A stretch of 64,000 nt of DNA from a virus. Taxonomy: Duplodnaviria > Caudoviricetes. The stretch lies in the IMG/VR virus record IMGVR_UViG_3300016486_001578; one strand, written 5' to 3'. Both the position numbers and the translations under genes were made by a program. The first letter of the stretch is position 1; every line of letters begins with the position of its first letter. Below the pieces are notes generated by a model, which saw only the letters and a program-made list of their open reading frames with translations, was not told the origin of the DNA and searched no databases. Positions 1,610 through 48,549 of the stretch are shown here, in pieces.

Positions 1610-1963
1610 TTTTTATTTTAAAATTGATTTTAATTTATTATCGAGTATTATTTTTTCCCTTAGGTGCTTATTCTCCCATATTCTATATGCCGAACATGAT
1701 GAATCTCCAACATTCCAACTAAATAAAACTTCAAACTCATGGACATTAATGCCTGATTTGTCTTCATCGGACACTTTGTTCTATTTCCTAATAGGATATA
1801 ATCAAAATTTAATTGATTATCATATAGCATCACACTACTTATTAAATAATTTTTATTCATCTAACAAATATAAGGAAAAATAAACTAAAAAAGAACTTTT
1901 ATATAAAGTGTATTATAATTTAAATGGGCACACAATCATTTCTCTTAGTATTGTGTGCATAAT

Positions 1964-2503
1964 TTATTTTAATTGTATATTTTTTGACCAATATGAAACA
2001 GATTCTCTATATAAATCTTCATCTATTTTTTCTCCTGATCCACCATATTCTAATCCTAGTTGATTACGAAACATCGTTATAGGAGGCATTGGTATCTCAC
2101 TGGTTGAGTTTTGTCCACTCATGTGAACTACTGCGTAATCAAACTCAATATCAACCAAGTTGGGTTCCTCTTTTACCATTTGTTCTTTATCATATAGAAC
2201 ATAAAATACATAATTAGCATCATCCACTTCCCAAGGAACTTCTACCCATCTAAAAAGAACCGGTAATTCTTTTTCATTCCTACTATTATATTCTGTTTGG
2301 ATATATGGGTAAACCCAAGGTTCTAATTTTATAGAAGATGGTTTTAGGTTTATTCGATTTTTTAATATAATTAATTTACAAAATGGTGCGTAACCATCTT
2401 CTAATCTATCAGGTTTATCCAATCCTGATAATTGATCTTCTAGTATTTTTATTTCGTCCTCAGATTTTTTTCCTTTCAAGAAGTCGCTTATAATTATTTT
2501 CAT
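1964..2503 (-). CDS. DUF3228-like protein
   Basis: DGYAPFCK, YNSRNEKELPVLFRW, VLYDKEQ, PMPPITMFRNQLGLEYGGSG match the family as I recall it. Confidence 0.65.
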   Translation of the reverse strand: MKIIISDFLKGKKSEDEIKILEDQLSGLDKPDRLEDGYAPFCKLIILKNRINLKPSSIKLEPWVYPYIQTEYNSRNEKELPVLFRWVEVPWEVDDANYVFYVLYDKEQMVKEEPNLVDIEFDYAVVHMSGQNSTSEIPMPPITMFRNQLGLEYGGSGEKIDEDLYRESVSYWSKNIQLK

Positions 2504-2511
2504 TGTTTTAT

Positions 2512-3237
2512 TTATTTAAGTAAAGTATCTAATTTTTTATTTCTGCGATATGCTTCGAAATTGCCGTCATGGTTTATATAAATATCATAATATTCATCAA
2601 TTGCTTCATCCAATAAGACCATTGTGTATCTTCTTGGTCTGTCTATTTTCCAGTGGAATTTTCGACCATCTAAAAAAGTAATATCACCGGATGAAAGATA
2701 AGAGCACTTATTTCCAAAATCACACATATCTGCTTTTGATTCATTCATAAATAATATCTTAATAGAATAAGAACCTTTTTCGACTTTTTTTATACCACTA
2801 GATATATTTCTTAATAATATTTCATCAAGAGAGTTACTAACTGGGTATAACATACTAGTAAAAGTAAATTTATTGAATATTTTTTTAAACCTGTTTATAT
2901 TTTTTGTTTTTACTTTATATTTTTCCTTATTAAAATCATCAATATTATTTGATAACATTGACATAATATACCTACTTGGTCTACTTGCTGTCCAATTATA
3001 TTTTTTATCATCTGAAAATTCAATATAACCACTCGATAACCAAGCAGAGATTGTACTAGTGTCCCACATTGTAGCCCTTGATCCATCATTAAAAACTATA
3101 TGCATTTCATATGAATCCCTTTCTAGGCTTTTTATACCACTTGATATTGATTTTAATAATATACTATCCAGTATCTTATCAACATCATATAACATAATTG
3201 AAAATGTAAATTTATTGAATATTCTTTTTAGTATCAT
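2512..3237 (-). CDS. Hypothetical protein with internal tandem duplication and C-terminal tag
   Basis: Two copies of IFNKFTF.MLY.V...LD.ILL..ISSGIK...LSSG.I.F.D..K..W...RP.RY.M; ends RRNKKLDTLLK. Confidence 0.7.
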   Translation of the reverse strand: MILKRIFNKFTFSIMLYDVDKILDSILLKSISSGIKSLERDSYEMHIVFNDGSRATMWDTSTISAWLSSGYIEFSDDKKYNWTASRPSRYIMSMLSNNIDDFNKEKYKVKTKNINRFKKIFNKFTFTSMLYPVSNSLDEILLRNISSGIKKVEKGSYSIKILFMNESKADMCDFGNKCSYLSSGDITFLDGRKFHWKIDRPRRYTMVLLDEAIDEYYDIYINHDGNFEAYRRNKKLDTLLK

Positions 3238-3803
3238 TTATTTTTATTTCATAATAGTTAGTTGATTACTCCGCATCCTCTGTATTTTTTTCATTAGATA
3301 ATATCCAATTCATTGTTCCGGATGGAATACCCATACCTACATATGATCCCAATTTATCCATAGCACATGTTATATTATCAGCAATAATGTGTGTTTCTTT
3401 CTCAACACCATTATCAACATATATACATTTATATAATAATTTACCCTTTACTTTAGAAATATCTATCATTTCAATAGATACTACAAAATTAACCCGACCA
3501 GATTTAGTGACGGATTTTATTAATTTATTTTTTCCCATTTTTTTATTATTTGATTGATTATTTTTAATCTCTTATTTTGACTTCCATCTTTAGTTGTCCT
3601 AAAAATATAACTTCCAGTGATTGATTACTATATTTGATATATTCACTTTTTATCGATTCTAAGTATTGTGGTGTTCCCTCAAGTTGGGTTCCTTTGTATT
3701 TATGATCAATAAGATAGTCTACTGCATCATTTCTAGTCATAGTTTTGTTAGTAGCTTTATTACTTTCTTCCATCGTATATATATTATAATTCATAAAATC
3801 GAT

Positions 3804-4223
3804 TCATTTTTTAGTCCTACAATGTGGACCAATACCTATTTCTATACTTTTAGCATCACTTAGTTTACGATTACAACATAAACACCTACCTAAATGGTAT
3901 AATTTAACCTTATCGTTTAGAAAATCAAATTTTTTCTGATTAGCCATTCTCAATACCCAAGAAATAGCAATAGCACTATTTGATTTATTTTCTACTTTAT
4001 CCTTTATTAGACTTCCGTTGTTATAAAACCCTAAATAAGTGAAGGTTAGATAACCAGTCTCAACATACACATGTGTGTATACATTACCATTGAATGGTTT
4101 AGTTTTTATTTTAAATGTGAAATCTTTATTAGTCTCTTTGGATTTAACTGTAAATATAGTTGTTGATTTATCCTTAAGTTCTATTACGTGATTTAATTGT
4201 TCTGAGCTAAATTCTTTTACCAT
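3804..4223 (-). CDS. DUF6011-like phage protein (C-terminal Zn-binding)
   Basis: GRCLCCNRKLSDAKSIEIGIGPHC. Confidence 0.65.
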   Translation of the reverse strand: MVKEFSSEQLNHVIELKDKSTTIFTVKSKETNKDFTFKIKTKPFNGNVYTHVYVETGYLTFTYLGFYNNGSLIKDKVENKSNSAIAISWVLRMANQKKFDFLNDKVKLYHLGRCLCCNRKLSDAKSIEIGIGPHCRTKK

Positions 4224-4278
4224 TTTGTAAATATAAGGAAATTTATTTATTTTACAAAACTATATTCATCATTATAAT

Positions 4279-4800
4279 ATGAAAAAGATTTATAATAGTA
4301 AGTGGTTTCCTAGATTACTCTACAACAAACCCGATGGCGGAAAAGATTCAGGTGTTACTGCCTACTTTTTAATAGAATGGAAAATACTTTTTTCTATTGG
4401 TATATTACACTTCCAAGAGGGAAGTAGAGAAGCTTTTCATAATCATGCTTTCAATGCCATAACATTTTGGTTAAGTGGTGATGTTACCGAATAAAAATTA
4501 AACGGAGATAAAAAAGATTTCAAACCTTCTTTCAAACCAAAGTTTACAAAAAGAGATAATTTTCATAAAGTAATAGCACATAAAAGCACCTACGCAATAA
4601 CATTCAGAGGACCTTGGGAAGATGTTTGGCAAGAATTTAAAAATAACACATATGTATTTTTAACACATGGTAGAAAAGTCATAAGAAATCCAGAAATGTG
4701 TATTGAGGATTATTTGGATATTGTTAGAGAAGAAATAGCCAAAAGAAAAACTAATAATAGGAACAATAAAATAAACAATCTATTAAATGATAGTATCTAA
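4279..4800 (+). pseudogene. Cupin-like protein with in-frame TAA at 4492-4494
   Basis: FHNHAFNAITFWLSG..E before the stop; same frame continues KLNGDKK...FHKV...TFRGPW to TAA at 4800. Confidence 0.6.
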
Positions 4801-5134
4801 AATAGGAACAATAAAATTAATGAATTATGATGTAGTAATATACTATGATGTTTATGGTGAAAAAGATAAAATGGTTTGCTCTTGGAAAAATATTGGAGGG
4901 ATTCAAACAGGTCTTGTTTATTTAAACCACAAGACAGGAAAAATTACAAAATCAAATGGAGAAGATATAATAAGAAATGAAACCGAGTGTGTTCCACATT
5001 TTATAGTTGGTGGTAATAAAGAGATTACGGATGATTTTACGGAAAGAATATTATTATATTTAAACAAAAATTATATCCAAAGAAACACAAAGAAGTTTGT
5101 TAGAGAATTTAAGATAAATAAAATATTAAAGTAA
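4787..5134 (+). CDS. Hypothetical protein with C-terminal tag
   Basis: Ends VREFKINKILK. Confidence 0.6.
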   Translation: MIVSKIGTIKLMNYDVVIYYDVYGEKDKMVCSWKNIGGIQTGLVYLNHKTGKITKSNGEDIIRNETECVPHFIVGGNKEITDDFTERILLYLNKNYIQRNTKKFVREFKINKILK

Positions 5135-5415
5135 TGGAAGAATTAGAGGGATTAAATAAAGAAGAGCTTGATAGATTAGTTGTTATAATAGAAAAATTAG
5201 AAAAGAAAAGCCTAAAAAATCATCAACTTAAAGAGTATATTATCTCGGTTAAAGAAGAATATAAAATTTATAACCGAGATAATAGAATAAAAAATCTACT
5301 TGATTTCGCTTAATTTTTCTACCAATTCATCTATCATCATTTCAAAACTTATGACCATCAGGACCAGTATCTTCCTTATATTTATTAATTTTTATTTTTT
5401 GACCTAATTTATATT

Positions 5416-6153
5416 TCATCTTGTAACTCCCGTAATTTGTAACCACCTATCTCTAACAAAGTAGTAATAATCCCTTGGTTCTAATCCATAGTTGCCTATT
5501 GCCCAGGCATCATTAGCTTCTATTAACATAGTTTCTCCTTTATAACTAACACCAAAATCTAGTGTGTATGCTGAGTGTGTTTTGTTTAAAAAATTTGATC
5601 CTTTTATACAATCATTTATAAATTCTGGATCTGGGAATAATAACGGGTCACCTATATAATGTTTCATACCAATAACTCTACCTCCTCTAATATATAATCT
5701 ATACTCAGAGTCAATATCTATAACTGATTGTAAAAGAAACTCATTACATCCTTCTATAATATTAAACATTTCTTCTTTTGAATAAACAACTTGGCCCGTA
5801 AATGATTTTACAGAATTAGCAGGCTTTATAAAAACTTTTCCGCCTATGTTTATTGAATCATAGATACCACCAATTGATTCTTTATCACCAATTATGGAAT
5901 CTCTTTTCATGAATGATAGTAGCTCTTTATTTTGTATTGATTCCGGAACGTCTAATCCATTTTCTTCTAGATATGATTTACATTCTTCTACTGAGCCTAC
6001 AATAATTTTATATGGATTATAAGGAATTTCAAAAGACTCTTCGAATTCTTTCGTTTCTATTCCTAGTTCTTCTGCTCCCATTTTGGCAATAGCAGCAAAG
6101 TCCCATATTGGGTTTCCCTTTCCATCTGATTGGTAATATAATATTGGTTTCAT
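5416..6153 (-). CDS. ATP-grasp domain protein (DUF4343/R2K type)
   Basis: VFIKP..VKSFTG, EYRLYI, YTLDFGV, LIEANDAWAIGNYG. Confidence 0.8.
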   Translation of the reverse strand: MKPILYYQSDGKGNPIWDFAAIAKMGAEELGIETKEFEESFEIPYNPYKIIVGSVEECKSYLEENGLDVPESIQNKELLSFMKRDSIIGDKESIGGIYDSINIGGKVFIKPANSVKSFTGQVVYSKEEMFNIIEGCNEFLLQSVIDIDSEYRLYIRGGRVIGMKHYIGDPLLFPDPEFINDCIKGSNFLNKTHSAYTLDFGVSYKGETMLIEANDAWAIGNYGLEPRDYYYFVRDRWLQITGVTR

Positions 6154-9100
6154 TTATTTATTTTATTACTCTAAGTTACGAAATTCTTGTTTATCAATAG
6201 TATTTTTTAATGTATTTTTCAAAAAAAATACCAAAATCTTTTACTGTTATTTCCCCCTAGTATAATGTGACCTCTCTATTTCAAACAAAACTCTATCCTC
6301 TTCACCTATTCTGTTTCTAATACTAGTCCATAAAATACTGGCTCTGTGTTGATTTTCGAACCTTCTAGCTAAATCTCCAATATGATTGTTTTTTTATTTG
6401 TATAGAATAGTTTATTTTTGATGATTTCATGCTTCTAATATCACTCGGAAATAAATCAACATAATAATCCCAATCCTTTTTAATTCCAAATGATTTTGAT
6501 GATATAAATACTGAACCCATATTTGTCACTATTGATGGTGAATAGTTATTATCAATTACCACTAATAATATATCCCTTATATCTTCTATGAAATCTTCAT
6601 CAACATCAACCAATCCCTTTGAATAAGTAGTATATTTATCAACAATATCTCTATCTTCTTCTGATAGGGGCGCATTTTCTATGTGGTATTCTGGATTATC
6701 ACCATCACAAACACCCGGTCTTATTATATCATATGATACACCAGTATCAATATCCAATGCTTTATCTATTGATTTCAATTCAACTCCTTTAATAGTAGTT
6801 CCCTTAATGTCAGTATTATAAGAATTTAGGAAAAACTTAGTTTCTATTTGGTCACTTTCGAATATTTTATATCCCTTTAAATAATTCATAATTATATATA
6901 TTAAACTATTTATTTTAAATAAAATATAACTTATAAATAAGTACAAAAGATGGAATATAAACCTATGTGTGGTGATCCGAAATGTTTATGTGGTTGGTGG
7001 TATATAACCGGCAAAATCTGCCCCAATATAATAAATGATATTAAGAAGAAAATGAGAGAAGATTGTATAGATAAAATATTAGATTAATTATCTTTTTAAT
7101 ATTTTATTTAATTTATTTTCTCTCTCCCTTTTTGTTCTATTTTCTTCGCGTATTCTAGCGCCAATTTCTTGGAGTTCCTCAACTCTTTCTGGTGTAAAAG
7201 TTAAAAACTTAACATAGTTTTTTCACCATCTATATGTAAATTCAGAGAATCCCTTACTATCACGATTTTCGAATGTATATTCTTTATCCTTTTGTATTTC
7301 TACTTCCTTATTGGTGAATTTATTTATTATTTTTTTTATCCAATTCATTAATCTAATATTTCTTCTATTTTTTTATCTATTCTATATTCCAACTCCATTT
7401 GGTAAAATTTATTATAGTAATTTGTTGGTGTGTAATCTATACAAGCTCTCAACCAAGAACTATTCATTTTAAATAATGGCACCCATTTTAGTGGTTCATC
7501 ACCATTTACCCCACGACCACCACGGCAAAGAAATCTCCTTATGACCTCATATGGATCATCTTCATATATTGTTATATCAGTAAATTCTTCACCACCTAGT
7601 AGATAAACATCGTACTCATCAGAATGATCAGATATCATTTTTCCATCAGCAGTCATTATCCATCTTGTTAATTCTTTTCTCATTTATTTAATTTATGTTG
7701 TTCTTCACAAGCTATTTGGTGTATACGCATTCTTTTTTGGTAATCACCTTTCAATTCTTTTAGTTTTGAATGTAATTTATTTATTTCTAGAATTTTTCTT
7801 TTCTTTCTGAATTTAGGACTCTCCCAATTCATAGAGAATAAACCCTCTGATTCATATCCACTTAGAATATAATCTTCGTTATATGTTTCCCAATAGTCTT
7901 TGTTGTTCAATTCCTTAACTTCGCTTTGTAACCATCTCAACTCTCTCTTAGTTGATTGGATCAATAAGTCAACCTTTCTTAATTCTATATAAGAAGGTAT
8001 CTTTTTATTGTTTGCTCTTTTTGAGTATTTATCCATCTTATAAAGATAAGGAAATTATTATATAAAACAGAACTTATACTTTTCTATATTGTATAATTGT
8101 TATGAAAACTTATGCAATATGGTACGTTCCTATATGGAGTAGATTTACTAGAAGAAGTGAATATGTTAAAGCATCATCAGCTAGACATGCTGAGATTAAA
8201 TTTTATAGCACAAAGGCATCAGATAATTGTCAAGAGATTTTAATAATAGAACATTGTTAATTGGTATTTTTTTATTAGAAACATTAAACCCATTTGAATG
8301 TCAATTCAATTGATCCTATAAAATATTCACCCATTATAGATTTTGATAGTTTTATTATATCATCCGGTATGTCTTTTCCGCTCATATCCGATCCTTTTGG
8401 CTCTTCCCATATTTCTACCCAATCACTACTAAGATTTGCCGAAATAGCCCGAAATAGTCTAAATTTAGACAATGGATATCCACTAATCATCATATACCTA
8501 ATAAATTGATCTATTTCACCATCATGTATATTTAATAAGCCTTCTACGTCTAGACCAAATGATCGGCCGTTATTCTTAGTTATATAAGTTATAATCTTCT
8601 TTTCATTCGAGAGTGTGTAACCAGGTCCCTGTACTTGTGTAGTACTCTTTAACCCAAAATCACTCAATGGTAATAGTATATCTCTAACTGTTTATATATC
8701 AAACTTAACAGATTCAAATAATTTTATACTTTTTATATACTTCATTTATTATATATTATATTTCATATAACTAAAATTACATTATTTATATGAAATATTA
8801 TGCTTATTTAAAACAAAATGGGGAGGGATGTGGTTATATGATCGGATGCGGTGAGACCTTAATAGAGTTTGAGGCCGGAAATGATGATGAGGCTAGAATA
8901 AAATTATCAGAAATAATAACCGGAAATGACGATGAAGGTGGATATACTGATGAACAAGAACTATCTAGTGCTATCATACTAAAGGATAAAATAGATTTTG
9001 ACCTTGGTTCTGTGTATGATGGATTCAAATCTTCCAAAGAAGAAGAGGGTAAAAAAATGCAACACTTAAAAGATAAAGAAGAGTTCGAAATACTAAAAAA

Positions 9101-9314
9101 GAAATTTGGAGAATAACTTATTTACTCTTTGATTTTACTCTTTGATTTTAGAATTGTATACTTTCTTCTAATATTTGCTAATTCTTTTTTTAGACTTGTG
9201 ATTAAATAAACTGCTTCATAGTTATCACAAAATTCTAATTCTTTTATTATTTCTTTATCTGATTTTGGTTCATACATATAAGTTATATTGAAAATAAAAT
9301 ATATTGTTTAAAAT

Positions 9315-9349
9315 AAAAAAGGCGTAACTGATTAAGTTACGCCTTTTTT
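9315..9349. terminator. Bidirectional intrinsic terminator
   Basis: A6-GGCGTAACT-loop-AGTTACGCC-T6. Confidence 0.85.
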
Positions 9350-9365
9350 AATTTAATTTAATTTA

Positions 9366-9743: not shown

Positions 9744-9900
9744 TTTTTATTTTTATTTGAATAAATATGATTTTAGTTGGTTTTAATTATGTAAATAAAT
9801 ATTAGGTGGTTCTCTATTTATTGTTAAAATTTTAATTACTTAAAAATCATTTGTTTGAAGTTTTATATCAAATAAACTTGTTTGTTTAATTTTTTGCATA

Positions 9901-9937
9901 AAAAAAAAGGGGAGAACTCTCGATCTCCCCTTTTTTT
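9901..9937. terminator. Bidirectional intrinsic terminator
   Basis: A8-GGGGAGA-loop-TCTCCCC-T7. Confidence 0.85.
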
Positions 9938-11521: not shown

Positions 11522-12966
11522 TTTTAATTTTTAAAAGTGGTTATTTAATTCTTTTGATAGTTCTTTTCTTACGTTTTCCCAATTTTTTGATAATCTAATA
11601 TCTTTTTCTTTTGTTCTATTTATACCAAATGTAGCCCTCATCATGAAATGCTTCATAGCATCACATGCATATTCATATTTTTGTATTTCCGTAACTCCTT
11701 CTTGTGAATTCAAAAAGAATAAAAGCATTTGTTCTATTTTATTTAGTTTCATCTTGATGTTTTTTAGTAGGGAAAATCTGACCAATTATCATCTGGCCAA
11801 TATCCTTCATCCGCCTCAAAATATTTATCCATCGGAAAATCTTCATCATGCTCAAAGTCTATTTCCATTGGTGGATCAGATAATATACTTCTTATTTTAT
11901 CGATTAAAAATTTCGTTTCTTCTACGTGGTGTTTTTCTAGTAACTTAAATCTTTCTTCCCAGGATAAATCTTTATTATCTTTAAATTTTTTAACTTTTAT
12001 CCATTTATACGAATTAAGTATTAGTTCTCTTTCTTCTTTACTTATATTAATCATTTATTTATTTATAATTACAAATATAGTTAAATTTATTTAAAATACC
12101 TAAAGAATGATTTGACTTTATTAGAGGCTACTTTGCTTCCATCATATACTACTTGAACATATTCGATGGTTGAGTTATGACCTTTTAAGAATTTTTCTAT
12201 TTTTCTAAAGGCAAGGGTAGAGCATTATATTTTGATAGAGATTCTAGATTAGTTGGACTCGACTTGGGACCAAGGCTATTTATTTGGAATTGATACAACA
12301 CCAACCAATGTCGGTGTTGGTTCTATGTTTATAAAAGATATATTTAGTTACTTTGATATTGATAGATTATATTTACCATCGCACCCGGATCATCCTGTTT
12401 GGAATAAAATAGCCACTAAAACTGAAAAAGAAGGATTTAATGGCTTAACTATATTTTTTATCGATGTTGGTCAACTTAGTTAATTATTTCATCAATTTTA
12501 TTATTTCTTTTATCTTTAATTGTTTTTTCACAAGTATGACAAAATATTGATTTTTCATTTGACCCATTAAATGGAAAGAAAAAAATAACTTTAATTATAT
12601 ACTTGTTTGTGATAGTTGTGAAGAAGCCTTAGCCCAATTTTTTAACTCTGATGTAATCATTTTTTATCTTTTTCCACATACTCATTTTTTGATAGTATGT
12701 CTTTTAGTTTTGGCTTTGGTTTTTTTCGGAGGCTCATTCTATAATTATAATTGGTGTAGAAATTCCATAAATAGTTTGTATCTCTTTCTTCCATAATTAT
12801 TTTTCTAATATTGAATTTATTTTTTTATCTCTTTCCTCGATAGATTTATTTTTTTCACTATCCAATCTTGTTAAAGTAGATGACAAAGAATAAAAATCTT
12901 ACTATTGCTGGGTGCGTTGTTGTTAATTCGTACCTCATTAATTTGCCAACGCTCTAAAAAATAACA

Positions 12967-13330: not shown

Positions 13331-13636
13331 AATTAAGTTGCGAAATACTTTACCTCTTTACATTTACTGCATTTGTACCCCATTCTACAACTCGTCCCTT
13401 CAAACTCTTTCCATCTATGTTCGCAACCTAACTGTTCGCTTCGCCCTACAACATTGACAACATTGGGGCATTGCTTTTACTTAAGCCATTAGTTAAGTCT
13501 TTAATCAAAACATCTATCTCATAAGCATCTATGTAATCGCCATTGTCATTTTCTTCACGTTCAGTTTCAACCACAAACTCATTCATTATATAATTACATA
13601 GGTCAAACCTTTGTATCTTCTTTAAACGGCTTATAA

Positions 13637-13770
13637 TTACTTTGATAGATAAATCTCCATCAAAGGATTCAAATTTTTTAATCATTTTTTAATCATTTTT
13701 TATTTTATATATTAATGCTCTATTTCAAAATAACCATCATCTTCTATTAAATCTAAACCCATATAAGATC
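13637..13770 (-). repeat. 134-bp perfect inverted repeat, left copy
   Basis: Reverse complement of 14375-14508; carries TAATATATA and MIKKFESFDGDLSIKV. Confidence 0.92.
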
Positions 13771-14374
13771 CTGTGATAGCAACGTGGCATTTTCCTCTAT
13801 TGGATTTTACTTTCCAATAAACCATTCCCAGTGAAACCATAGCAATTATAAGTGTTGCAACTAATAAGTAAAATCATATTTTATTTTTTTATTTACACAA
13901 AGATACAAAAATATTTAAATTATGGTAATATTTTGTTAATTTTTTCTTCACGTATATCTTTTAAATAAAAAATAATGTGTTGAAGAAATGGTCTCTCATT
14001 TCTTCTTCTTGTAACATTTTGGTATAATAATCACTTATTCTATCTCTCTCATTTTTTTCATCTATGTCATATAATTTAGATAAATTTAGGTAATAATTTG
14101 AATAATTCATATTTTTTATATTTAAATAAAAAAATTAGTTTAGAAGTGTTATCTTTGTTTTTAATTAAAAATAATAACATGACAGTAAAGCAAATAGAGA
14201 GATTAGGATTTCCATATGTTGGTAGTAAATTAAGACCAAGAAGGTTCTATTGTTATTTCGGCGAGGTAACAATACCAGACTATTATAATATACAAGATAT
14301 TCACCAACTTATATTCGATAAAGGAATAGAAGAGGGTAAGAGAGTTCAAAAAATAATAGATGCTAATAAATTAA

Positions 14375-14508
14375 GATCTTATATGGGTTTAGATTTAATA
14401 GAAGATGATGGTTATTTTGAAATAGAGCATTAATATATAAAATAAAAAATGATTAAAAAATGATTAAAAAATTTGAATCCTTTGATGGAGATTTATCTAT
14501 CAAAGTAA
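14375..14508 (+). repeat. 134-bp perfect inverted repeat, right copy
   Basis: Reverse complement of 13637-13770. Confidence 0.92.
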
Positions 14509-14684
14509 AATGGGATGTTAGTGAAAGTAGTGGGGAAGAATCCTTTGACCTCGATGATTTAGGAGTAACAAAAGAAGATTGGGAATCAATGAGTGATTCT
14601 GATAAAGAAGAGACTATACAATCCGCACTTGATGATTTACCAGAAAGAGTATCGATTATTGTTGATACTTGGACAGAGGATTAA
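14460..14684 (+). CDS. Small acidic protein with capsid-targeting-like N-terminus
   Basis: Starts MIKKFESF; TAATATATA at 14431. Confidence 0.6.
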   Translation: MIKKFESFDGDLSIKVKWDVSESSGEESFDLDDLGVTKEDWESMSDSDKEETIQSALDDLPERVSIIVDTWTED

Positions 14685-14695
14685 AAATAAAATAT

Positions 14696-15241
14696 ATGAC
14701 AGATAATAAGAAAATTGAAGCAGAAAGAAAATTTTTATTGAAACGGAAACCGGATTTAGATTTATCTAAATTTTATTCAGAAACCGTATTACAATCGTAT
14801 TATCCAAAGGATAACGATAAGTGGGGGAGAGTTGAGCACATAAAGACCAAATCCGCCACTATCGAGACTGGTGGGCTATTTGTTAACGAGACATCAGTAA
14901 AATATATTCAAAACGAAAAAGAATTTCTAAGACCTGGGGTTTGTGATGAATTTGAAAAGGAAATAACAGAATCAGAATATGAGGAGTTATTTGGTGAGTG
15001 TGTTAAGTTTGTCAAAAAGACGAGATATTGGATACCAGATCCATCAATTTCTGATACCTTTTGGGAATTGGATATTTATCATAATCTAGATATGGTTGTT
15101 GTGGAAGTAGAGGCAGATGAAAGTATTCTATTTGATATTCAATTGCCAGAATTTATAAAAGAAGTTCTAATACTAGAAGTTACACAATTTAGAGAGTTCT
15201 CAAACGAGAGGTTATCTGTTGAATTTAATAAAGCACTATGA
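14696..15241 (+). CDS. CYTH-domain (triphosphate tunnel) protein
   Basis: EAERKFL, EFEKEI, KKTRY, WELDIY, VVEVE, EVT....SN. Confidence 0.8.
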   Translation: MTDNKKIEAERKFLLKRKPDLDLSKFYSETVLQSYYPKDNDKWGRVEHIKTKSATIETGGLFVNETSVKYIQNEKEFLRPGVCDEFEKEITESEYEELFGECVKFVKKTRYWIPDPSISDTFWELDIYHNLDMVVVEVEADESILFDIQLPEFIKEVLILEVTQFREFSNERLSVEFNKAL

Positions 15242-15505
15242 AGATAGAAATGGTAGATAAAGAATCCCTAAAAAGATATTCTGATTATCTTTCTTCTGGT
15301 TATTTAAATAAACCCATAGATTATACTAAATATGTTTCTCCTTCTAGTAAGTTAAAGAAAATTAAAGAAGATAGAGATAAAAAAATTAATGATTTATTAA
15401 ATGAATAAGGATAACATTAAAATAACAATAAAAGATTCTGATTCGACACTTGTTTATGATTTTATGAACACTTGGAGAAAGAAAATTGATGATGAGAATA
15501 ATTAA

Positions 15506-15691
15506 ATGAGGAATAAATATCCTATACTTGGGTTTGCTCCAGGGAGTTACATGGGAACTTGTGTTAATTGTAAAAAAACCTTTATGGGTGATAAAAGAGC
15601 AATACATTGCGAACCTTGTGCTATTATATTATCAAACGAACATATATCAAAAAATAGATATATAAAAATTAATAAAATAATAAATGGGTAA
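15506..15691 (+). CDS. Zn-ribbon microprotein with C-terminal tag
   Basis: GFAPGSYMGTCVNC...GDKRAIHCEPCA; ends RYIKINKIING. Confidence 0.65.
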   Translation: MRNKYPILGFAPGSYMGTCVNCKKTFMGDKRAIHCEPCAIILSNEHISKNRYIKINKIING

Positions 15692-16118
15692 TTATTCAAA
15701 TATGGATTTATATCCAGAGTTTACAAATACCTGCTCTCTATGTAACTCTATGTTTGGTTCCAAATTCGCTCATATAGAAATATGTAAAAATTGCTCAGAT
15801 GTTTTCAAGAATAGAGAAGAAAAAATTAATAAAATAATAAGTGGTGAAAATAGATAAAATCCATTCATATGTTGTTGCTAGTCCGGCCTTTGGTAATGTA
15901 ATATATTGCGCGAGGTGTAAAAAATATAGAACTGATATATGTCATTGTATAAAAGAAGAAAGAGATAAAAAAATTAATGATTTATTATATGGAATATGAG
16001 TATAATGAAAATGTTCATCAATGTAATGAGTGTGTTAAAATTTTTTATAATGAGAAGTCGGATAAATGTCCGTTCTGTTACCCACAGAAAAATAGAGATA
16101 GAAAAATAGAAGCTATAA

Positions 16119-17033
16119 TTAAGAAGTTATAATAGGCTTTTTGAATTTTAGTATATTCAACTCTTTTGACTTCGCTTCTATCATAACATCAACTTTATTT
16201 CCATAAAGGTTCGGTAATTCATTTATCATATCTGAGTGAGCTTGTTCTTTTATACTACTATTATTTTCGTGTATAGCCTTGGACTCAGAATAGTGAACAA
16301 CTGGTGTTATTCCATCTGGCCAAGTTTTTATAGCCATTTCTAATGCTTCTCTTTCACTAAGGCCACCATCTTGAAATTTGTGGTGATGGTAGTCAAAAAC
16401 TATCGGAATACCTATTCGCTCATGAATATACATTAGATCTTTAACCGAATACATACTTCCTTTATCATCATTTTCAACAGTTAATCTTAATTTAACTGAA
16501 TCTGATAATCTATCAAAATTTTTAACAAACCTATCCATGGCTGATATCTTATCACCATAAACACCATTACAATGTATATTTATTTTATTATAGTGTGATG
16601 GCTCGAATCCCATAATGTCAAGTATCTTACCATTATTTTCTAGATCGGTTATTGTATTATTAATAACTCTTTCGTTTGGTGATACTAAAACATTAAAGGG
16701 ACCAGGATGTGATGTTATTCTTATATTATTTTCCTTAGCAAAATCTCCACAAGCCTTCAGAGCGTCTCTTATTTCTAAATGATCTGGAGCATCTTCTAAA
16801 TTCCATTCAGAGAACCAAGGAAATATATCAGAACTCATTCTGAATAGTTTTATATCATTATCGTTATTCCATTTCAATATTTTCAATAAGTCAATTGAGT
16901 TTAACAAAGATAACTCACTAGCGTAATTTATTCCTTTTGATAAAAATGTTCTTTTTATCATGGATCTATTAGTTGTTATTTTCGGTCTCTGATTACTTAA
17001 TGTCATGTTTATACAAGCGTATCCTAAATTCAT
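16119..17033 (-). CDS. uvsE: UV damage endonuclease
   Basis: LGYACIN, FRMSSDIFPW, SHPGPFNVL, INIH, RLTVENDD, PIVFDYHHH, HYSES, MIEAKSKE. Confidence 0.95.
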   Translation of the reverse strand: MNLGYACINMTLSNQRPKITTNRSMIKRTFLSKGINYASELSLLNSIDLLKILKWNNDNDIKLFRMSSDIFPWFSEWNLEDAPDHLEIRDALKACGDFAKENNIRITSHPGPFNVLVSPNERVINNTITDLENNGKILDIMGFEPSHYNKINIHCNGVYGDKISAMDRFVKNFDRLSDSVKLRLTVENDDKGSMYSVKDLMYIHERIGIPIVFDYHHHKFQDGGLSEREALEMAIKTWPDGITPVVHYSESKAIHENNSSIKEQAHSDMINELPNLYGNKVDVMIEAKSKELNILKFKKPIITS

Positions 17034-17483
17034 TCTTCTAATTTACTATAAATATAATACTTTAATTTGGATATCCAATTATTTTCCAATATCTCTTTTA
17101 ATTTAGATTCTCTTTCATCTTCTTTTCTCTTACAAAAGGGGCACTCGACCTTAATATGGTATTTATAACATGATTTACACTGATTAATATCGGCCATTTT
17201 CATTCTATTCATATAGTATTTTATTAATTAATTGATTACGCTCTCTTTTTATTCTATCTAAATTTGATTCGTTTTGTTCTTCATATCCATCCCAATCACA
17301 TTCTTCACAGTATGATCTACAATTTACACAATATGAACAAGGAGGATTGCCCATGTGGCAACTACATCCATAGTCGGTATCATGTTCTTCTAATATACCC
17401 TTACATCCATTTCTGTTACATTGTTCTCCTTTTTCGTATCCTTCCATAATTAAAACTTGATCGTTATTTTTCATATAAAATAA

Positions 17484-17885
17484 ATGACACAAAGTTTACC
17501 AAATGAAGAGATGATGAAGAGATGGAGTTCTATATTAGAACAACATGAGAATACTGGATTAATGAATTCAGGAACGCAATCAATAAATAACCAAATGGTT
17601 GATTTTTTACCACTAGTTACTAAGGCCTTTGTAGGGTCAGTTGCCTTAGATTTAGTTCCTGTTATTCCAATGGATGGTAGTAATTCACCAGATGAATTTA
17701 AAAAAATGAGGTCTGATATTAAAATAGAAAATAGAGAAAGGCGAATAGACTCTGTTATAGGTGGTATAAAAATTGAAGAAATGAAAATAGAAGATCACAA
17801 AGATTATAAAAAAAGTAAACCACCAAGTTGTAATTTATTCTATATGGATTATACATATGGTGGTACTTCCTCGACTACTTCCTAA
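17484..17885 (+). CDS. Truncated major-capsid (gp23-like) paralog
   Basis: RWSSILE; LPLVTKAF...VALDLVPVIPMDG...PP..LFYMDYTY resemble the N-terminal third of T4-like major capsid proteins. Confidence 0.5.
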   Translation: MTQSLPNEEMMKRWSSILEQHENTGLMNSGTQSINNQMVDFLPLVTKAFVGSVALDLVPVIPMDGSNSPDEFKKMRSDIKIENRERRIDSVIGGIKIEEMKIEDHKDYKKSKPPSCNLFYMDYTYGGTSSTTS

Positions 17886-18504
17886 CTAAGGTTCTAAATT
17901 CAGTCATTAGTTTATTTCTAGTTGGTTGATATTTTTCTTGTAATTCACCCCAATTCCATTTCTTAGAATTTAATTCACTCCATATTTGATTAGAGACATC
18001 AAAATTTATTTTACCATATTTCACAAATTCAATACCAAATTGAGCAATTCTTAGTGAGTGAAAAATACTTTTTATTCCAATATAATAATCACCTTGTTCT
18101 AATTTCTTTTTGGATTTAACCCATGAGTTAGAAACTGAGTGTGATATATTATGTATTAGGCTTTTTTCACTAAGTTTAAAATCACAATCAAATTTCTTAA
18201 TAATAGCCCAATCTGGGGCAAATAAACATTCTATTGCTTTTATGTGATTAACTTTCGACCATTGTTTGAATTTATCCGGAACAATTAGGTGTATGTTTAA
18301 TTCTTTACCCTTAAATTTTGATGATAGTGTTGATGTCTGGTTTATTTCTACCTCAGGTGAGCTAGAATTACATATCAGTATTATATCCCAATCAGAATTA
18401 TAATTTGATGTTCCATAAACTCTGGATCCAAAAATATAACAACCATGCACCCTTAATGGGTGCTTCTTTGCTACCTTGCATATTTCTTCTAATGTTGGTA
18501 TCAT
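17875..18504 (-). CDS. Pol-beta-superfamily nucleotidyltransferase
   Basis: IFGSRVYGT...SDWDII signature; C-terminal KSIFHSLRI helical domain. Confidence 0.8.
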   Translation of the reverse strand: MIPTLEEICKVAKKHPLRVHGCYIFGSRVYGTSNYNSDWDIILICNSSSPEVEINQTSTLSSKFKGKELNIHLIVPDKFKQWSKVNHIKAIECLFAPDWAIIKKFDCDFKLSEKSLIHNISHSVSNSWVKSKKKLEQGDYYIGIKSIFHSLRIAQFGIEFVKYGKINFDVSNQIWSELNSKKWNWGELQEKYQPTRNKLMTEFRTLVRK

Positions 18505-18834
18505 TTTTTTCTCCTTGTTGCTTTTATAACTTTAGTTTTTTTACTACCTTCTATTCTTTTCTTCTTCTTTAAATAAACATCACCATTAAGAACATATGGT
18601 AAATTTTGTATATTAGCTCTTATTGATTTTATACGATTAGACATTTTTGTTTTTGAGATACCCTTAAGTGAATCTACCTCACTCTCTAATAAATTAATTT
18701 GATCCATCATAGGTTTGGATGCTTCTATTACCAATTTTGTCTTTAGACTTTCTGGTATCATTACTCCATACCATCTAATTTTATTATCATTCTTGATTAT
18801 GTCTTCGTATATAGTATCTGTCATGTTTTATTTT

Positions 18835-18970
18835 TGGTGTTCCTAGCAGGATTCGAACCTGCCTTGTAGAGCTACTTGATTAATGACCATTGCCTATATA
18901 TCACTGGGACCATTTATCCATCACCTACCCAAACTCACTAACTTGTTGCGACCTCATTAGTTATAGGAAC
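18835..18970 (-). ncRNA. tRNA-like RNA (136 nt) with encoded CCA and expanded central domain
   Basis: Acceptor GTTCCTA/TAGGAAC + A + CCA; T-arm GCAGG-TTCGAAT-CCTGC; no 7-nt anticodon loop. Confidence 0.75.
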
Positions 18971-19686
18971 CTATTTATATGTAAATATAATAATAATAAT
19001 TAAGATAAACAAGTTTTATTTTTAATTAAAAGTCCGTATATTTATTAAAATAAAAAGAAATGAGTAGAGAAATAAATCTATATAGATATGAATATAATAT
19101 AAGCGAAGATGATAAACATTTCAATTCAATTAAAATAACTTTACCTAGTTATGTGGAATTAGTTTATGATATTGAGTATGAATATTATGATAATGCTTGG
19201 TTAGAGAAATTTAAAGATATGATTAATTATTTTATTTATATTTTAAAAAAAATATCTAGGTTAGATTTTAAATTTTCCAAAATGAAAAAAAGAATTGGTC
19301 TATATAGCATGATTAATCTTAAATTTAAACACAATACAGAAAAAAATACACTAATAATTCTTGAGGAGTATTTAGAAGATCATAAAATAAATATAATATA
19401 TCTATCATCTGTTAGAGACCGAGAAGAAAAACTAAAATCAATTGGTATATGAAAAATATAAATAAAGAAACTTTTTGCATACACAAAGAGAGTGGACATA
19501 TAGGAAAGATAATAAATGAGATTACCGGAAGCACTGATTTCCCAGACCAATGGGGAATCTATTGGCTACCTGGTAAGAATTCCGAACAAAATAAAGAACA
19601 TGGTCGTAAATACTATTGGCAAGACAAAGACAAAATAGAAATCCTAAAAAGTATAAACTAATTATAAATTTATTCATATTAATATT

Positions 19687-20196
19687 ATGAATAAAGGATA
19701 TAAAATAATTGTAGCCACCGGATTGAATGGTGAGATAGGCGCAAATGGCGACCTATTATGGAGGCTACCAAACGATATGAAATGGTTTAGTAAAAACACA
19801 ACAGGATCTGTTGTAATAATGGGTAGAAAAACATACGAAAGTTTCCCAGAGAAATATAGACCTCTACCAAATCGAAAAAACATCGTTATAACAAGAAACA
19901 AAGACTACGTAGCGCCAGAAAACGTATCAGTCGTTAATAGTATCGATGATGCTTTAATTGTGGCCGAGGGCTCATCATATGAACAAAAGTGGATAATAGG
20001 TGGTGGTGATATATACAAACAAGCCTTAGAATTTTGTGAAGAAGTTGTTATAACAAAAGTAGATTCTTCTTTTGAAGAAGCTGATACATTTTTCCCAAAA
20101 TTAAATGAAGAATGGAGAGAAGAATGGAGAGAAGATCATAAAATTGATGATAGACATAAGTATAACTTTTCCTTCATAAGATATAATAGAGTATGA
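19687..20196 (+). CDS. folA: Dihydrofolate reductase
   Basis: IG.NGDLLWRLPNDMKWF, VIMGRKTYESFP..RPLPNRKNIVITR, IIGGG, ADTFFP. Confidence 0.96.
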   Translation: MNKGYKIIVATGLNGEIGANGDLLWRLPNDMKWFSKNTTGSVVIMGRKTYESFPEKYRPLPNRKNIVITRNKDYVAPENVSVVNSIDDALIVAEGSSYEQKWIIGGGDIYKQALEFCEEVVITKVDSSFEEADTFFPKLNEEWREEWREDHKIDDRHKYNFSFIRYNRV

Positions 20197-20359
20197 GAAT
20201 AAAAGCAATATATCGAAAAAATCTAAAAATGAGTGATAATAAACCGAAGTTGAAGCAGGAACAAAAACTTCTGCGGCTTGGATAGTTGATTTTAAAAGTA
20301 TAAATACCGACTCAAAAGAATGTAGATGTTCTTATTATCCAAAAAATGGACCACCATAG
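20193..20359 (+). pseudogene. Pth2-type peptidyl-tRNA hydrolase with internal deletion
   Basis: MRIKAIYRKNLKMSDNK joined out of frame at ~20243 to TEVEAGTKTSAAW; both resemble Pth2 motifs (RxDLKMSxGK; TEVxxGTxT). Confidence 0.55.
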
Positions 20360-20390
20360 AAAAATAAAAATATACTTTAATATATACAAT

Positions 20391-20855
20391 ATGAAGTATT
20401 TAAAGAAATTCAACGAAGAATTAGAAGTAACTACACAGAGACAAATATTAATAGATGATTTTGAAGGTGAGTTATCGAGAATGGAATCTTATGATTTAGA
20501 GAGATTCTCAGTTCAGAAAAAATTCACACAGGAGCAAAGAAACAAACTAAATTTAAAATTTGGTATTGATACAACCATATTTGGACCTAGGTCTAAAATG
20601 GATTACCCACTTAGTTTTGAATATGGTTCTTTTGGTGGAGCTAAATATGATTTTAATGGTGATTTAAAAAAGAAGATATTCTTTGGTAAAGAAGAAGAAT
20701 CAAATGAAATTTTCTATTTGATTTCTGGTAATATAAACATTAAGTTAGGAAATGATGTTGGTAGGAAAAGGGTAGTAATAAAATTCAATAAATTAGATAA
20801 AGTAATAAATTTATTCAATAATTTCGAGGATAAGATAAATTATTATGTTGAATAA
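20391..20855 (+). CDS. Hypothetical protein with capsid-targeting-like N-terminus
   Basis: MKYLKKFNEE directly after TAATATATA (20378). Confidence 0.65.
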   Translation: MKYLKKFNEELEVTTQRQILIDDFEGELSRMESYDLERFSVQKKFTQEQRNKLNLKFGIDTTIFGPRSKMDYPLSFEYGSFGGAKYDFNGDLKKKIFFGKEEESNEIFYLISGNINIKLGNDVGRKRVVIKFNKLDKVINLFNNFEDKINYYVE

Positions 20856-21687
20856 CCTATCTTAAACACAAAGATCTGCAACATCATGATATATACTATA
20901 TTATATACTCGACTCAGGAATCCATTTTTGTCCATTTATACTCAATGTCCCAAGTTCATTATCCCACTCAATCTCTTCTGAGTAATCATCCATCAATTTA
21001 GCAATTGTCTCTGATCTTTTTTTAGATATTGATTTTTTACCTGCTATAAATGATTCTATGACCATAGAATGTATCTCTCTTTTAGCACTATCGGATAGAA
21101 TATCCATTCTATCACAAAATGACTCAAACCTTTCTAAAACTTCTTTTGGTAGTTTGGTTTTTGTTTTTAATTTGTCTTTCATTTATTTTATATGAAAAAA
21201 TAAAACAATAGTTTAGTCTATGAGCCAAGAAGTCTCAGAAATAATAAACAAACAGATAATAGATAATAAAAATAAATTTGATAGTCTATATAAAAAGTCA
21301 TTAATTCAAGCCGGTGATGATGTTTGTACAAAGGGTAGTGTAGAATTCTGGGAAAATTGGCTATCACAGATTATTTTATTATTCTCCACCTTTTCTATTC
21401 GCCCAAGCTCTGATAGTAAAGTGGTTATTTTTGTTTCTTCGCCCAAAAGATTATTTATAGATATCTCTCTTTTAAAGGATTCACTATTCGTTATATGTTT
21501 ATATCGATTTAATAAACCAGATATGGTTTTTGTGTCGCCTATGTTTATGTTTAATCTTTTCATAGCACCGACAAGAGTTTTATATCTCTTAGCTAAGTAC
21601 CACTTATCTGAATAGTTATCACATATCTTGTCTTTATAACTGACATAATATTCTCCAACTGATCCAATATAAACAATGTATTCCATG

Positions 21688-21802
21688 TCCTCAGGGTAGG
21701 ACCTGCACCTACCTACTCTTAATTAACTCGGATTGAGGCTTTAATATCCCAATCAAATGCGGTTAATTCGTCAATGTGTTTTTCTCGATAAACTACCTAA
21801 GG
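21688..21802 (-). ncRNA. tRNA-like RNA (115 nt) with long hairpin replacing the anticodon arm
   Basis: Acceptor CCTTAGG/CCTGAGG + A; D-arm TA-GTTT-ATCGAGA-AAAC; T-like arm GTAGG-TGCAGGT-CCTAC; central AATTAAC/GTTAATT and GATTGGG/CCTCAATC stems. Confidence 0.6.
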
Positions 21803-21827
21803 AGGTATAAAGATAAGAATATTTTTA

Positions 21828-22262
21828 TTAACTACAAACTAAATACAAAAGAAAAGAAGCAGCCAATAATCCAAATATTATATTTAGCTTTATCAAAAAA
21901 TTATTTACTTTTCCTAATTTATAATTCTCAATATATTCTGATTCTTTATTAAATTCTTCACACAATAAATAATAAAAACAAACTCTATATTTACTCTTAT
22001 TTGATTTGCCTAATTTTTTAATAACACTTTCTATTGATTCATCCAGTTCTTTGGAATCCTTTAGTCCTAATTTTTTAATTAAGTAATTATCTTTTATTGT
22101 CTTTAATTCAGATGGATCACTACTTGATACTGTTTCAGCATCAGCCTTGAAAATACCCGGAGATAGACTATCGGTTATTTTATTCAATAACTCCATATTA
22201 ACTTTTATTCCTGTTGATTCAAGTTGTTTTTTATACCTTTTGATCATATCCGATTTCTTCAT
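21828..22262 (-). CDS. DUF2853-like protein with C-terminal TM helix
   Basis: PGIFKADAETVSSSDPSELKTIKDNYLIKKLGL...SNKSKYRVCFYYLL. Confidence 0.7.
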   Translation of the reverse strand: MKKSDMIKRYKKQLESTGIKVNMELLNKITDSLSPGIFKADAETVSSSDPSELKTIKDNYLIKKLGLKDSKELDESIESVIKKLGKSNKSKYRVCFYYLLCEEFNKESEYIENYKLGKVNNFLIKLNIIFGLLAASFLLYLVCS

Positions 22263-23092
22263 TTGAATGATTTATTTTCTATAACTAATTTAACATGTGT
22301 TGGCTGTGTTAATAATACATTGAATTCTCTTTTTATCCTATCTTTTAAAAAATCTTGTAAAAAAGATTCCTCATGTATAATTTTATAGTTTTTTGGTATT
22401 TTTGTTTTAACTGTTTCTAAAGATACTGGTAGATAATTTTCATTAACTTCCCTCTTCCAATTATTCTTATATCTATATTTCAATAGGTAGTGCATAAATG
22501 TTCTATAACTATCATTTATAGAACCCCACTTAGACTCAAAAGAATTAAGATATTCTTGGTCAGTTTTTCTTCTAACCTTTTTTACATCATCTTTAAATTG
22601 TGATATTTCTTCTTTTTCTAATTCTACGGATGGTATCATATCTCTTATGGTTATCCATTTAAAGTCATTACCAAATACTTGCTTTTCCCAGAATTTTTTA
22701 ATTATTTTACCATGTGAATATGAATAAACTTCATGTATCACCGAGCTCAAATTTAAAAGTGGTGATTTGTTTTTTTGTATAGACCTTAATACTTCTTCCC
22801 AATTATTTGTTATTAGTGTATTTTGTCCTAATCTTTTTTTGGCCTTTAATATCATATCATCATCTAAATCATAACCAATTATCTTTATATTAGGATTGTT
22901 ATTTCTAATATTTTCCAAAAAGGTGCCATCGGCGCATCCAAAATCAACAATTACATCAAAATTTAACATATCGATAAAAAAAGATTTATCTACCATTGAT
23001 TTACTCATACTATCTATATAAGATTGTGTGTTATTTATTGGTGATTTTCCAACAAATTCTTCTAAAAATAGCTCCCAGTTTAATATAACCAT
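22259..23092 (-). CDS. Class I SAM-dependent methyltransferase
   Basis: IVDFGCADG, IGYDLD, LSSVIHEVYSY, ITIRD. Confidence 0.85.
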   Translation of the reverse strand: MVILNWELFLEEFVGKSPINNTQSYIDSMSKSMVDKSFFIDMLNFDVIVDFGCADGTFLENIRNNNPNIKIIGYDLDDDMILKAKKRLGQNTLITNNWEEVLRSIQKNKSPLLNLSSVIHEVYSYSHGKIIKKFWEKQVFGNDFKWITIRDMIPSVELEKEEISQFKDDVKKVRRKTDQEYLNSFESKWGSINDSYRTFMHYLLKYRYKNNWKREVNENYLPVSLETVKTKIPKNYKIIHEESFLQDFLKDRIKREFNVLLTQPTHVKLVIENKSFK

Positions 23093-23697
23093 GATTTATA
23101 TATTAAAATATGTTTTTTTATTTTAAATAATAAATATATAAAAAGGTCACTATATGTGTTTAAAATCGCTCAATTCTAGTGATAAATCTTTTAATATTGA
23201 TATTTTTCTATCAACTAGGCTTTCGAATAATTTATATGATAAAATCATATAATATATATTAAAACTACTATATTATTTCCTCTATCTTGGATATCCTGGA
23301 TATTCTTATACTATCTAATAACATATCAACTACCCAATTTCCAAAATCATCTTGTATTTTAGTGGCTCTTTCATGGCTCAAATGGAGGCCACCGGTGCCT
23401 GTTAAGTCACCCCAGCCTCTTATAGATAGAAAAACTTCACCTTTTAGATAAATATAACTCTCGTCATATGATATTGTTGAGAAGTCAATTTCATCAGTAA
23501 TTTCATCAGTTTCCCCATTTAAAAAAGAAACAATGTTGTTTGTTATGTGATCAGTAAGATGATCATCCTCAAATGTAAATGCCCAAGTATTATTTATAGA
23601 AAATACAGTACCCCAGGTATTCTTTAGTGGTAATTTATATACATCTTTGAAACTTCTTATTTTACTTGATCTTGTTCTTTTCTTTCTACTCATTATG

Positions 23698-48495: not shown

Positions 48496-48549
48496 TTCTA
48501 TGTAGTTAACAGTTTATTTTATATATAATATAAATTTAAATCATAATAA

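Follow-up and report, generated by a model that had tools for sequence, protein, structure and literature searches.

Tagged genes in the window

The window, i.e., the whole stretch of 64,000 nucleotides (nt) analysed here, comes from a virus of the Caudoviricetes (IMG/VR record IMGVR_UViG_3300016486_001578) and has a guanine plus cytosine (GC) content of 28%. About 20 of its open reading frames (ORFs) carry, 0-5 residues before the stop codon, the core motif R-[D/E/N]-x-K-[I/L]-x-x-[I/L]-[L/I] of a C-terminal peptide of 9-13 residues (e.g., KEVRDEKIEQILS), called the tag hereafter. A first-pass annotation, made from the letters of the window, had listed these peptides as a signal shared by unrelated proteins. 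Every listed peptide is found at the stop coordinate assigned to it, and most are C-terminal as described; the placement does not hold for RESKLKEIL (ORF 17030-17212), which lies 18 amino acids (aa) short of the stop.

On the plus strand, the frame 4696-4800 is an ORF of 34 aa, or the 3' part of a frame of 101 codons, and contains the tag RNNKINNLL (4759-4785) followed by the tail NDSI. Then come two orphans of 115 aa (4787-5134, tag REFKINKIL at 5102-5128, tail K) and 59 aa (5134-5313, tag RDNRIKNLL at 5275-5301, tail DFA), the latter with no co-directional gene after it. The end of a Cys-rich ORF of 45 aa (6950-7087, tag REDCIDKIL at 7055-7081) abuts the convergent tagged frame at 7088. An orphan of 56 aa (15238-15408, tag RDKKINDLL at 15373-15399, tail NE) is followed by a zinc-ribbon protein of 61 aa (15506-15691, phrog_10481 with a weak FYVE match, tag RYIKINKII at 15656-15682), a second one of 57 aa (15684-15857, tag REEKINKII at 15813-15839, tail SGENR), a Cys-rich protein of 52 aa with a GTG start (15841-15999, tag RDKKINDLL at 15961-15987) and a further zinc-ribbon protein of 51 aa (15977-16132, tag RDRKIEAII at 16094-16120, tail KKL). 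An orphan of 130 aa (19060-19452) has the variant tag REEKLKSIG-I (19420-19446).

On the minus strand, 1613-1777 is a doubtful gene of 55 codons with GTG as sole start and the degenerate tag LDNKLKSIL (1619-1645), and 2512-3237 encodes an orphan of 241 aa with an internal duplication and no Pfam or PHROG family (tag RNKKLDTLL at 2518-2544, tail K). A frame of 44 codons has no start codon (7088-7222, tag RENKLNKIL at 7097-7123, tail KR), and the tag of an orphan of 111 aa (7348-7683) is degenerate by replacement of R1 by I (IDKKIEEIL at 7354-7380, tail D). The start-less frame of 50 codons at 12476-12625, with half a zinc ribbon (FCHTCEK) and the tag RNNKIDEII (12482-12508), is probably a gene remnant. 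An ORF of 29 aa has a TTG start (12797-12886, tag RDKKINSIL at 12806-12832, tail EK), and the gene 13920-14110 lies in two frames, 13961-14110 and 13920-14027 (tag REEKINKIL at 13926-13952). A zinc-ribbon protein of 60 aa (17030-17212) carries the non-terminal RESKLKEIL mentioned above (17087-17113), with its tail of 18 aa. The list is completed by a zinc-cluster protein of 95 aa (17205-17492, phrog_22771, tag RNQLINKIL at 17214-17240), a protein of 141 aa of the phrog_12467 family with the tag at its very end (23268-23693, RISKIEEII at 23271-23297) and an orphan of 210 aa (61629-62261, RNDKISSII at 61638-61664).

Five instances, i.e., those with stops at 1613, 7088, 12476, 12797 and 13920, are in frames that contain no ATG, or none ahead of the motif. 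Two tagged frames stand behind a single stop: 4696-4800 (+) runs in frame behind the TAA at 4495 that ends 4279-4494, and 7088-7222 (-) behind the TGA at 7223 that ends 7223-7348, the downstream part having no early start in either case. Readthrough, pseudogenes or errors could account for them.

Enrichment at C-termini and selection on the peptide

A strict regular expression, R..[KR][IL]..[IL][IL], was scored in the last 15 aa of the 109 window ORFs of at least 40 aa. It gives 9 C-terminal matches vs. 2 at 17,399 internal positions (Fisher p=2e-11), while composition-preserving shuffles of each of these 15-aa ends give 0.07 matches on average and 2 at most. With a position matrix, 16 of the 19 matches in the window are located at most 8 aa from a stop, against 0-1 for shuffled frames. 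Gene ends are AT-rich, which would favour a composition artefact. On the contrary, three other AT-rich phage loci crowded with small genes (GC 29-36%) contain no match and three related megaphages at 24-31% GC have background counts only; thus AT bias is not the cause of the motif.

A DNA or RNA element at gene ends is another way of producing such a pattern, and a downstream ATG does follow the motif by 1-2 nt in 5-6 cases. The conservation nevertheless depends on the reading frame. The Arg of the tag is encoded by AGA (13), AGG (2), CGA (2) and CGT (2), in proportions as found genome-wide; the Ile, Leu and Lys codons vary freely, and the usage of Arg, Lys, Ile and Leu codons tracks that of the genome. 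Nucleotide information across the tag is 3-periodic, i.e., high at codon positions 1 and 2 and low at the wobble position, and no conservation is found in the flanks of its 27 nt. About half of the window copies have no co-directional downstream gene, and two copies are at abutting convergent gene ends. The genome-like codon choice, the periodic information and the unconserved flanks lead to the conclusion that selection acts on the peptide. The first-pass annotation had named an AT-biased null and a frame-independent element as the two explanations able to overturn its claim; the claim stands against both.

Distribution among related megaphages

The kinship of the window to other genomes was judged by marker proteins. 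INPHARED contains no near-identical relative, the single match (693 bp, 75% identity) being to LR756502.1; a search of IMG/VR gave no exact match. The Joint Genome Institute (JGI) contig Ga0078899_102062 is the same phage (99.9% identity) and thus adds no comparative information. A search for relatives based on the histidyl-tRNA synthetase (HisRS) returned 16 loci of about 50% GC that are unrelated to the window and have no tags. The IMG/VR contig UViG_3300027996_002186 (483,262 bp, 98% complete; hereafter G001) has 70% identity with the window over 59423-61309. The markers give 70-73% for LR745206.1 (634 kb) and 62-64% for LR756502.1 (642 kb); LR756504.1 (38%), LR756501.1 (39%), LR756500.1 (33%) and the Prevotella Lak phages (28%) are more distant. 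The largest genomes of Al-Shayeb et al. 2020, all predicted to infect Bacteroidetes, were grouped with Lak as the «Mahaphage» clade (PMC7162821); the LR75xxxx records are presumably genomes of that study.

When tagged ORFs are counted up to 8 aa from the stop, G001 has 41-48 (shuffled: 0) and LR756502.1 has 103-125 (shuffled: 1), the latter corresponding to 95 of about 1,000 genes with the highest density at 620-640 kb (21 of 56 genes). The tag is also present in LR745206.1 (42-kb sample). LR756504.1 (636 kb) has about 48 tagged ORFs of the variant R-[K/Q]-x-K-I-x-[E/D/N]-L-L, which is the exact C-terminus in 30 of the 48. A single tagged ORF is found in each of LR756501.1 (735 kb, whole genome; loose motif 90 vs. 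89 expected), Lak-C1 (441 of 540 kb scanned) and LR756500.1 (441 of 462 kb scanned), the last two counts being background. The tag is thus restricted to a sub-clade of the Bacteroidota «Mahaphage» megaphages, where about 7-12% of ORFs carry it.

The 103 independent copies of LR756502.1 give the extended consensus [K/h]-[S/Q/A]-x-h-R-[D/E/N]-x-K-[I/L]-[N/D]-x-[I/L]-[L/I/G], in which h is a hydrophobic residue; the residues after the tag are mostly 0-2 and polar. Position 2 depends on the lineage, i.e., D/E/N in one and K/Q in LR756504.1. This swap, read from the sequences, suggests a partner that evolves along with the phage. The variant with ...K-L-x-x-[IL]-G-[IL] instead of ...[IL]-[LI]-x, seen in the window at 19420-19449, recurs in LR756502.1 (e.g., 624421-624732 and 629211-629699).

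G001 orthologues are nearly lacking for the window carriers, which indicates a fast turnover of the carrier set. Where orthologues exist, the tag is mostly retained: in 17 carrier pairs of G001 and LR756502.1 (28-54% identity), it is complete in 11, degenerate in 3 and absent in 3, and the orthologues of 61629-62261 keep it (RDEKINEIL in G001, RDEKINQIL in LR756502.1) at about 40% identity of the protein body. The tag is under purifying selection as protein.

The split gene 13920-14110 (-) also has a G001 orthologue, an intact tagged protein of 70 aa (235540-235752). A T6 run (ATTATTTTTTATTTAA) separates the two frames, and a -1 shift or one added T at this run makes the protein colinear with the orthologue. 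The run is also present in an independent JGI assembly of the same phage (L017). The split could be an assembly error, a pseudogene or a programmed frameshift.

Carriers and portability of the tag

After removal of the tag, the 62 carriers of the window and G001 fall into 61 BLASTP clusters, i.e., there is no homology beyond the motif of the kind that defines a paralogous family. The carriers were described as otherwise unrelated in the first-pass annotation, and this holds by BLASTP; yet about 8 window carriers have a common zinc-ribbon layout, CxxC...CxxC directly before the tag, with 23-42% identity over about 45 columns. Part of the tag density at 15.5-17.5 kb is thus due to tandem duplication of a small family.

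With a median of 115-120 aa the carriers are short, and they are soluble (transmembrane-like segment in 2 of the 62). A Pfam scan of 39 G001 carriers gives no domain; among the 38 largest carriers of LR756502.1, 3 have a domain (riboflavin kinase, DUF6011 and BtpA). Foldseek of the model of the 141-aa carrier 23268-23693 vs. PDB gives nothing under E 0.9.

Two carriers belong to families that exist without the tag elsewhere. phrog_12467, the family of 23268-23693, has 29 homologues from other sources, and the 15 included in the alignment all terminate ahead of the tag, 14-16 residues earlier. The zinc-cluster protein 17205-17492 has 5 homologues from other phages, which lack the tag and either end early or have a different C-terminal domain. 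The tag is thus portable, as had been proposed: it is present on unrelated proteins, added to families that are tag-free elsewhere and kept in orthologues.

An internal copy is found in the 133-aa «capsid paralogue» of the window (17484-17885), with RERRIDSVI. The G001 orthologue (234140-234631, 43% identity) has RDRKIDSIT, so this copy is conserved and not a chance match. In G001, the internal or near-terminal tags of 74608-75000, 454602-455735 and 48207-48614 precede an acidic-hydrophobic stretch (SDEEVIDFDI, DEDILDYIPE and DDSNIIDDEV, respectively), which may be a second short motif.

Tagged genes and a putative late-type upstream motif

The top-enriched upstream 8-mer of both G001 and LR756502.1 is AATATATA. 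In these genomes (T)TAATATATA precedes about 150-200 genes each; window examples are at 41795, 45307, 46014, 32405 and 29522. It often begins exactly 12 nt ahead of the ATG, and leaders are thus very short or absent in this class of genes. In the window, AATATATA is located 12-29 nt ahead of the ATG in genes of the baseplate/tail block and in genes encoding an N-terminal M-K-x-K-x-F tag. Because of this placement it is read as a putative late-type signal.

AATATATA was counted within 80 nt upstream of each gene. It is found for 0 of the 38 carriers vs. 149 of 620 other genes in G001 (p=7e-5), and for 1 of the 95 carriers vs. 198 of 906 others in LR756502.1 (p=9e-9). Moreover, 31 of the 38 G001 carriers are in co-directional blocks wholly free of TAATATATA. 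The N-terminal tag has the same distribution, i.e., 0/38 carriers vs. 59/620 others and 1/95 vs. 103/906, respectively, in agreement with the earlier remark that no carrier has the N-terminal leader. The C-terminal tag marks a gene class without the late-type motif.

The tag thus differs from the capsid-targeting sequence of T4 (N-terminal leader of IPI-III and Alt), which is likewise a short terminal peptide serving as class address on unrelated phage proteins. The T4 leader is N-terminal, cleaved by the prohead protease and borne by late, packaged proteins. The tag is C-terminal, is on genes without the late-type motif, and is mutually exclusive with the N-terminal tag of the same phages.

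Predicted helix and candidate partners

On a helical wheel, K4, I8, R1, I5, L9, D2 and N6 are on one face and the variable positions are opposite; the conserved positions are spaced i, i+3, i+4, i+7 and i+8. In the AlphaFold2 model of 23268-23693 (predicted local distance difference test score 87), the last helix (107-140) has the tag as its free end. The tag would thus form a short amphipathic helix. The conserved face, the portability and the class-wide distribution speak for a common partner to which the tag would dock. As a whole, the observations are probably best explained by a portable, selected C-terminal peptide whose helix docks a predicted common partner. In this proposal the helix face of the tag would bind one partner, and many unrelated proteins would be handled as a class.

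The first-pass annotation had taken the tag for a docking signal recognized by a common hub. Its portable peptide is confirmed, and a one-face helix is what docking expects; the hub itself was not found. A replication scaffold, one of the hubs suggested, is weakened by the family-B DNA polymerase of G001, which ends in ...RRLSVVMDIFGGFK (...VVMDIFGGFK), i.e., a T4-like hydrophobic-acidic tail different from the tag.

The leading candidate, held tentatively, is the phages' own protease, i.e., a ClpC-like unfoldase without the usual N-domain and 2-3 ClpP subunits. The tag would then act as a class-wide degron or adaptor-docking signal that delivers non-late proteins to ClpC-like/ClpP (or to host Clp/Lon) for clearance at the late switch, so that they would be removed on schedule. 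A ClpC-like protein of about 700 aa and 2-3 bona fide ClpP genes are present in all four tag-bearing genomes tested (G001, LR756502.1, LR745206.1 and LR756504.1), and the two tag-free relatives LR756501.1 and LR756500.1 lack ClpP and a ClpC-like gene, respectively. In G001 the double-AAA+ unfoldase is encoded at 315339-317453 (L059:253-2367) and ClpP at 36628-37386 and 68605-69276. The proteins that G001 shares with the tag-bearing LR756502.1 and LR756504.1, and that are missing from LR756501.1, number only 29 and include both ClpP. The ClpC-like protein has the domains AAA, AAA_lid_9, AAA_2 and ClpB_D2-small; its nearest relatives are of ClpC type (810-860 aa), whose N-domain of about 150 aa (Clp_N) is missing, the N-terminus being about 40 low-complexity residues, and the VGF loop is kept. 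A tag-like end is found on the gene immediately ahead of the ClpC-like one, i.e., RENI[L/I]NDIL in G001 and LR745206.1 and RDEIIDDLL in LR756502.1.

A degron is also suggested by the location of this short, transferable signal at or next to the free C-terminus and by the absence of the late-type motif from tagged genes. The basic stretch followed by a hydrophobic end presumably resembles the ClpX C-motif 2 of MuA (RRKKAI). Genes for ClpP, ClpS, ClpA and ClpX are known in jumbo phages, with targets not known (Iyer et al. 2021, PMC7824862). Against a degron, the helical periodicity and the conserved acidic or basic position 2 suit docking better than threading into a pore, and phage ClpP genes may have other roles. 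AAA+ degrons such as ssrA and C-motif 2 differ from the tag in sequence and have no counterpart of its one-face conservation.

Several points weigh against the proposed docking to a common, Clp-type partner. No partner of the tag was found in this analysis. Known Clp degrons are recognised in an extended rather than a helical form. ClpP and a weak, split AAA_2 match are present in Lak-C1, and a ClpC-like gene in LR756508.1 (42-kb sample), yet both phages are tag-free; the Clp genes are thus insufficient for tags. The phyletic link between Clp and tag comes from very few independent lineages. The «late» label of AATATATA is deduced from gene content. Since some window copies have frames that are interrupted or lack a start, not all of them encode a working protein.

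The complex prediction of the G001 ClpC-like protein (alignment A5) with the 70-aa carrier (L035:15540-15752) has a score of 0.00, without controls, and counts neither for nor against this pairing. A 21-column profile of the tag (A4) matches no PDB sequence up to E 10, and a feature search of the ESM Atlas with a tag-bearing tail gives only unnamed clusters (0.75-0.76). ARAGORN finds no transfer-messenger RNA in G001. The tag may also resemble the far C-terminus of primary sigma factors (Bacillus subtilis SigA, ...RSKRLKDFLE).

Alternative explanations

Recruitment without proteolysis, in which a scaffold of the phage, a receptor of a compartment or a hub of the host would bind the carriers through the tag, is about as likely as the Clp partner, i.e., possible at best. 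It agrees with the one-face conservation, the portability and the class-wide distribution, as well as with the lineage-specific swap at position 2. Furthermore, 29 candidate partner genes track the tag, including an orphan of 1161 aa without Pfam domain (G001 241093-244578). On the contrary, no candidate receptor with a known peptide-binding fold is found, and there is no sign of compartment building by these phages.

Pairing of tags, by which small proteins would dimerise or bundle, is unlikely. An amphipathic helix at a free end and carriers often encoded side by side are what self-association expects, but the invariant Arg in the middle of the hydrophobic face and only three hydrophobic positions make a poor coiled-coil core, and the sequence is far more uniform than oligomerisation needs.

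It is very unlikely that the tag targets membranes as the C-terminal helices of MinD or FtsA do. Its helix is C-terminal and amphipathic with basic residues; however, D/E/N occupy positions 2 and 6 of the conserved face, the hydrophobic positions are almost only I/L and never aromatic, the net charge is about zero and, as said, transmembrane-like segments are nearly absent from the carriers.

A sliding-clamp binding motif similar to the PCNA-interacting peptide (PIP) box is equally hard to sustain. The segment [D/N/E]-x-K-[IL]-x-x-[IL]-[LI] can presumably be aligned to Q-x-x-[ILM]-x-x-F-F, both being C-terminal. Nevertheless the polymerase does not share the motif, its tail being the one described above, and the carriers are orphans without DNA-enzyme domains. 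A search with the clamp family PF02916 gives no match, and likewise none in its 14 control genomes, so that it carries no information on the clamp.

Finally, an encapsulin-like virion-packaging signal, which the inferred HK97 fold of the phage capsid would allow and which the tagged genes contradict by avoiding the motif that precedes virion genes, is highly improbable even when counted together with the composition artefact and the DNA/RNA element treated above.

Comparison with known addressing peptides

Terminal addressing peptides are already known, i.e., the T4 capsid-targeting sequence, encapsulin cargo-loading peptides, ssrA-type degrons and the peroxisomal targeting signal PTS1. No description of a C-terminal tag on early or middle phage orphans came up when the literature on (jumbo) phages was searched for a common C-terminal motif or an import signal. 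The AAA+ degrons are, like the tag, short, portable and located at the extreme C-terminus, basic then hydrophobic. Encapsulin peptides and PTS1 are also C-terminal peptides of about 10 residues, and load unrelated cargo via one receptor surface; they have no sequence likeness to the tag, which is not preceded by a flexible linker and whose expression class speaks against capsid loading. MIM1 of ESCRT-III, bound by the MIT domain of Vps4, and the PIP box, bound by PCNA, are single amphipathic helices with few fixed charged and hydrophobic positions that bind a hub, as proposed for the tag, but their consensus is different.

We lean, with some reserve, towards a class-wide addressing that has not been described before: a helix on 40-125 fast-evolving orphans per genome would hand the early/middle effector set to one phage-encoded machine, tag and reader co-evolving. 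That this single machine is either the ClpC-like/ClpP protease acting as developmental timer or a dedicated receptor or scaffold is, as part of this addressing, likewise slightly favoured. One label of 9-13 residues on about a tenth of the proteome is an experimental handle on hundreds of small orphans of giant phages, and defines a likely early/middle effector set from sequence. If the reader is the phage Clp protease, the tag would belong to a degron system, encoded by the virus, for timing the viral programme; if it is a receptor or scaffold, this would be a new mode of organising phage proteins in the cell. Either way, the tag would be a compact portable module and a possible tool in Bacteroidota.

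Other features of the window and of G001

The window also encodes tyrosyl-tRNA synthetase, HisRS, dihydrofolate reductase, UvdE, an R2K ATP-grasp protein, a split UvsW and a baseplate and tail block, the latter with a Phage_base_V spike (50411-51601) and a VanY/tape-measure-like protein (53325-54926). Three minus-strand genes are located among the tagged ones, i.e., those of a Mom-family protein (62816-63925), of the R2K-clade ATP-grasp ligase (5416-6153) and of a DUF3228 protein (1964-2503). The last two are absent from G001; since G001 bears tags, the R2K gene was rejected as a C-terminal ligase or hub.

A perfect inverted repeat of 134 nt (13637-13770 and 14375-14508) duplicates the start of an N-tagged ORF (MIKKFESFDGDLSIKV...), present at 13446-13685 (-) and 14460-14684 (+), and both copies have AATATATA 28 nt upstream. 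The family-B DNA polymerase of G001 is split into pieces that lie on different strands at a distance of about 100 kb (173061-173462 (+) and 76067-77326 (-)), with a TGA within one match.

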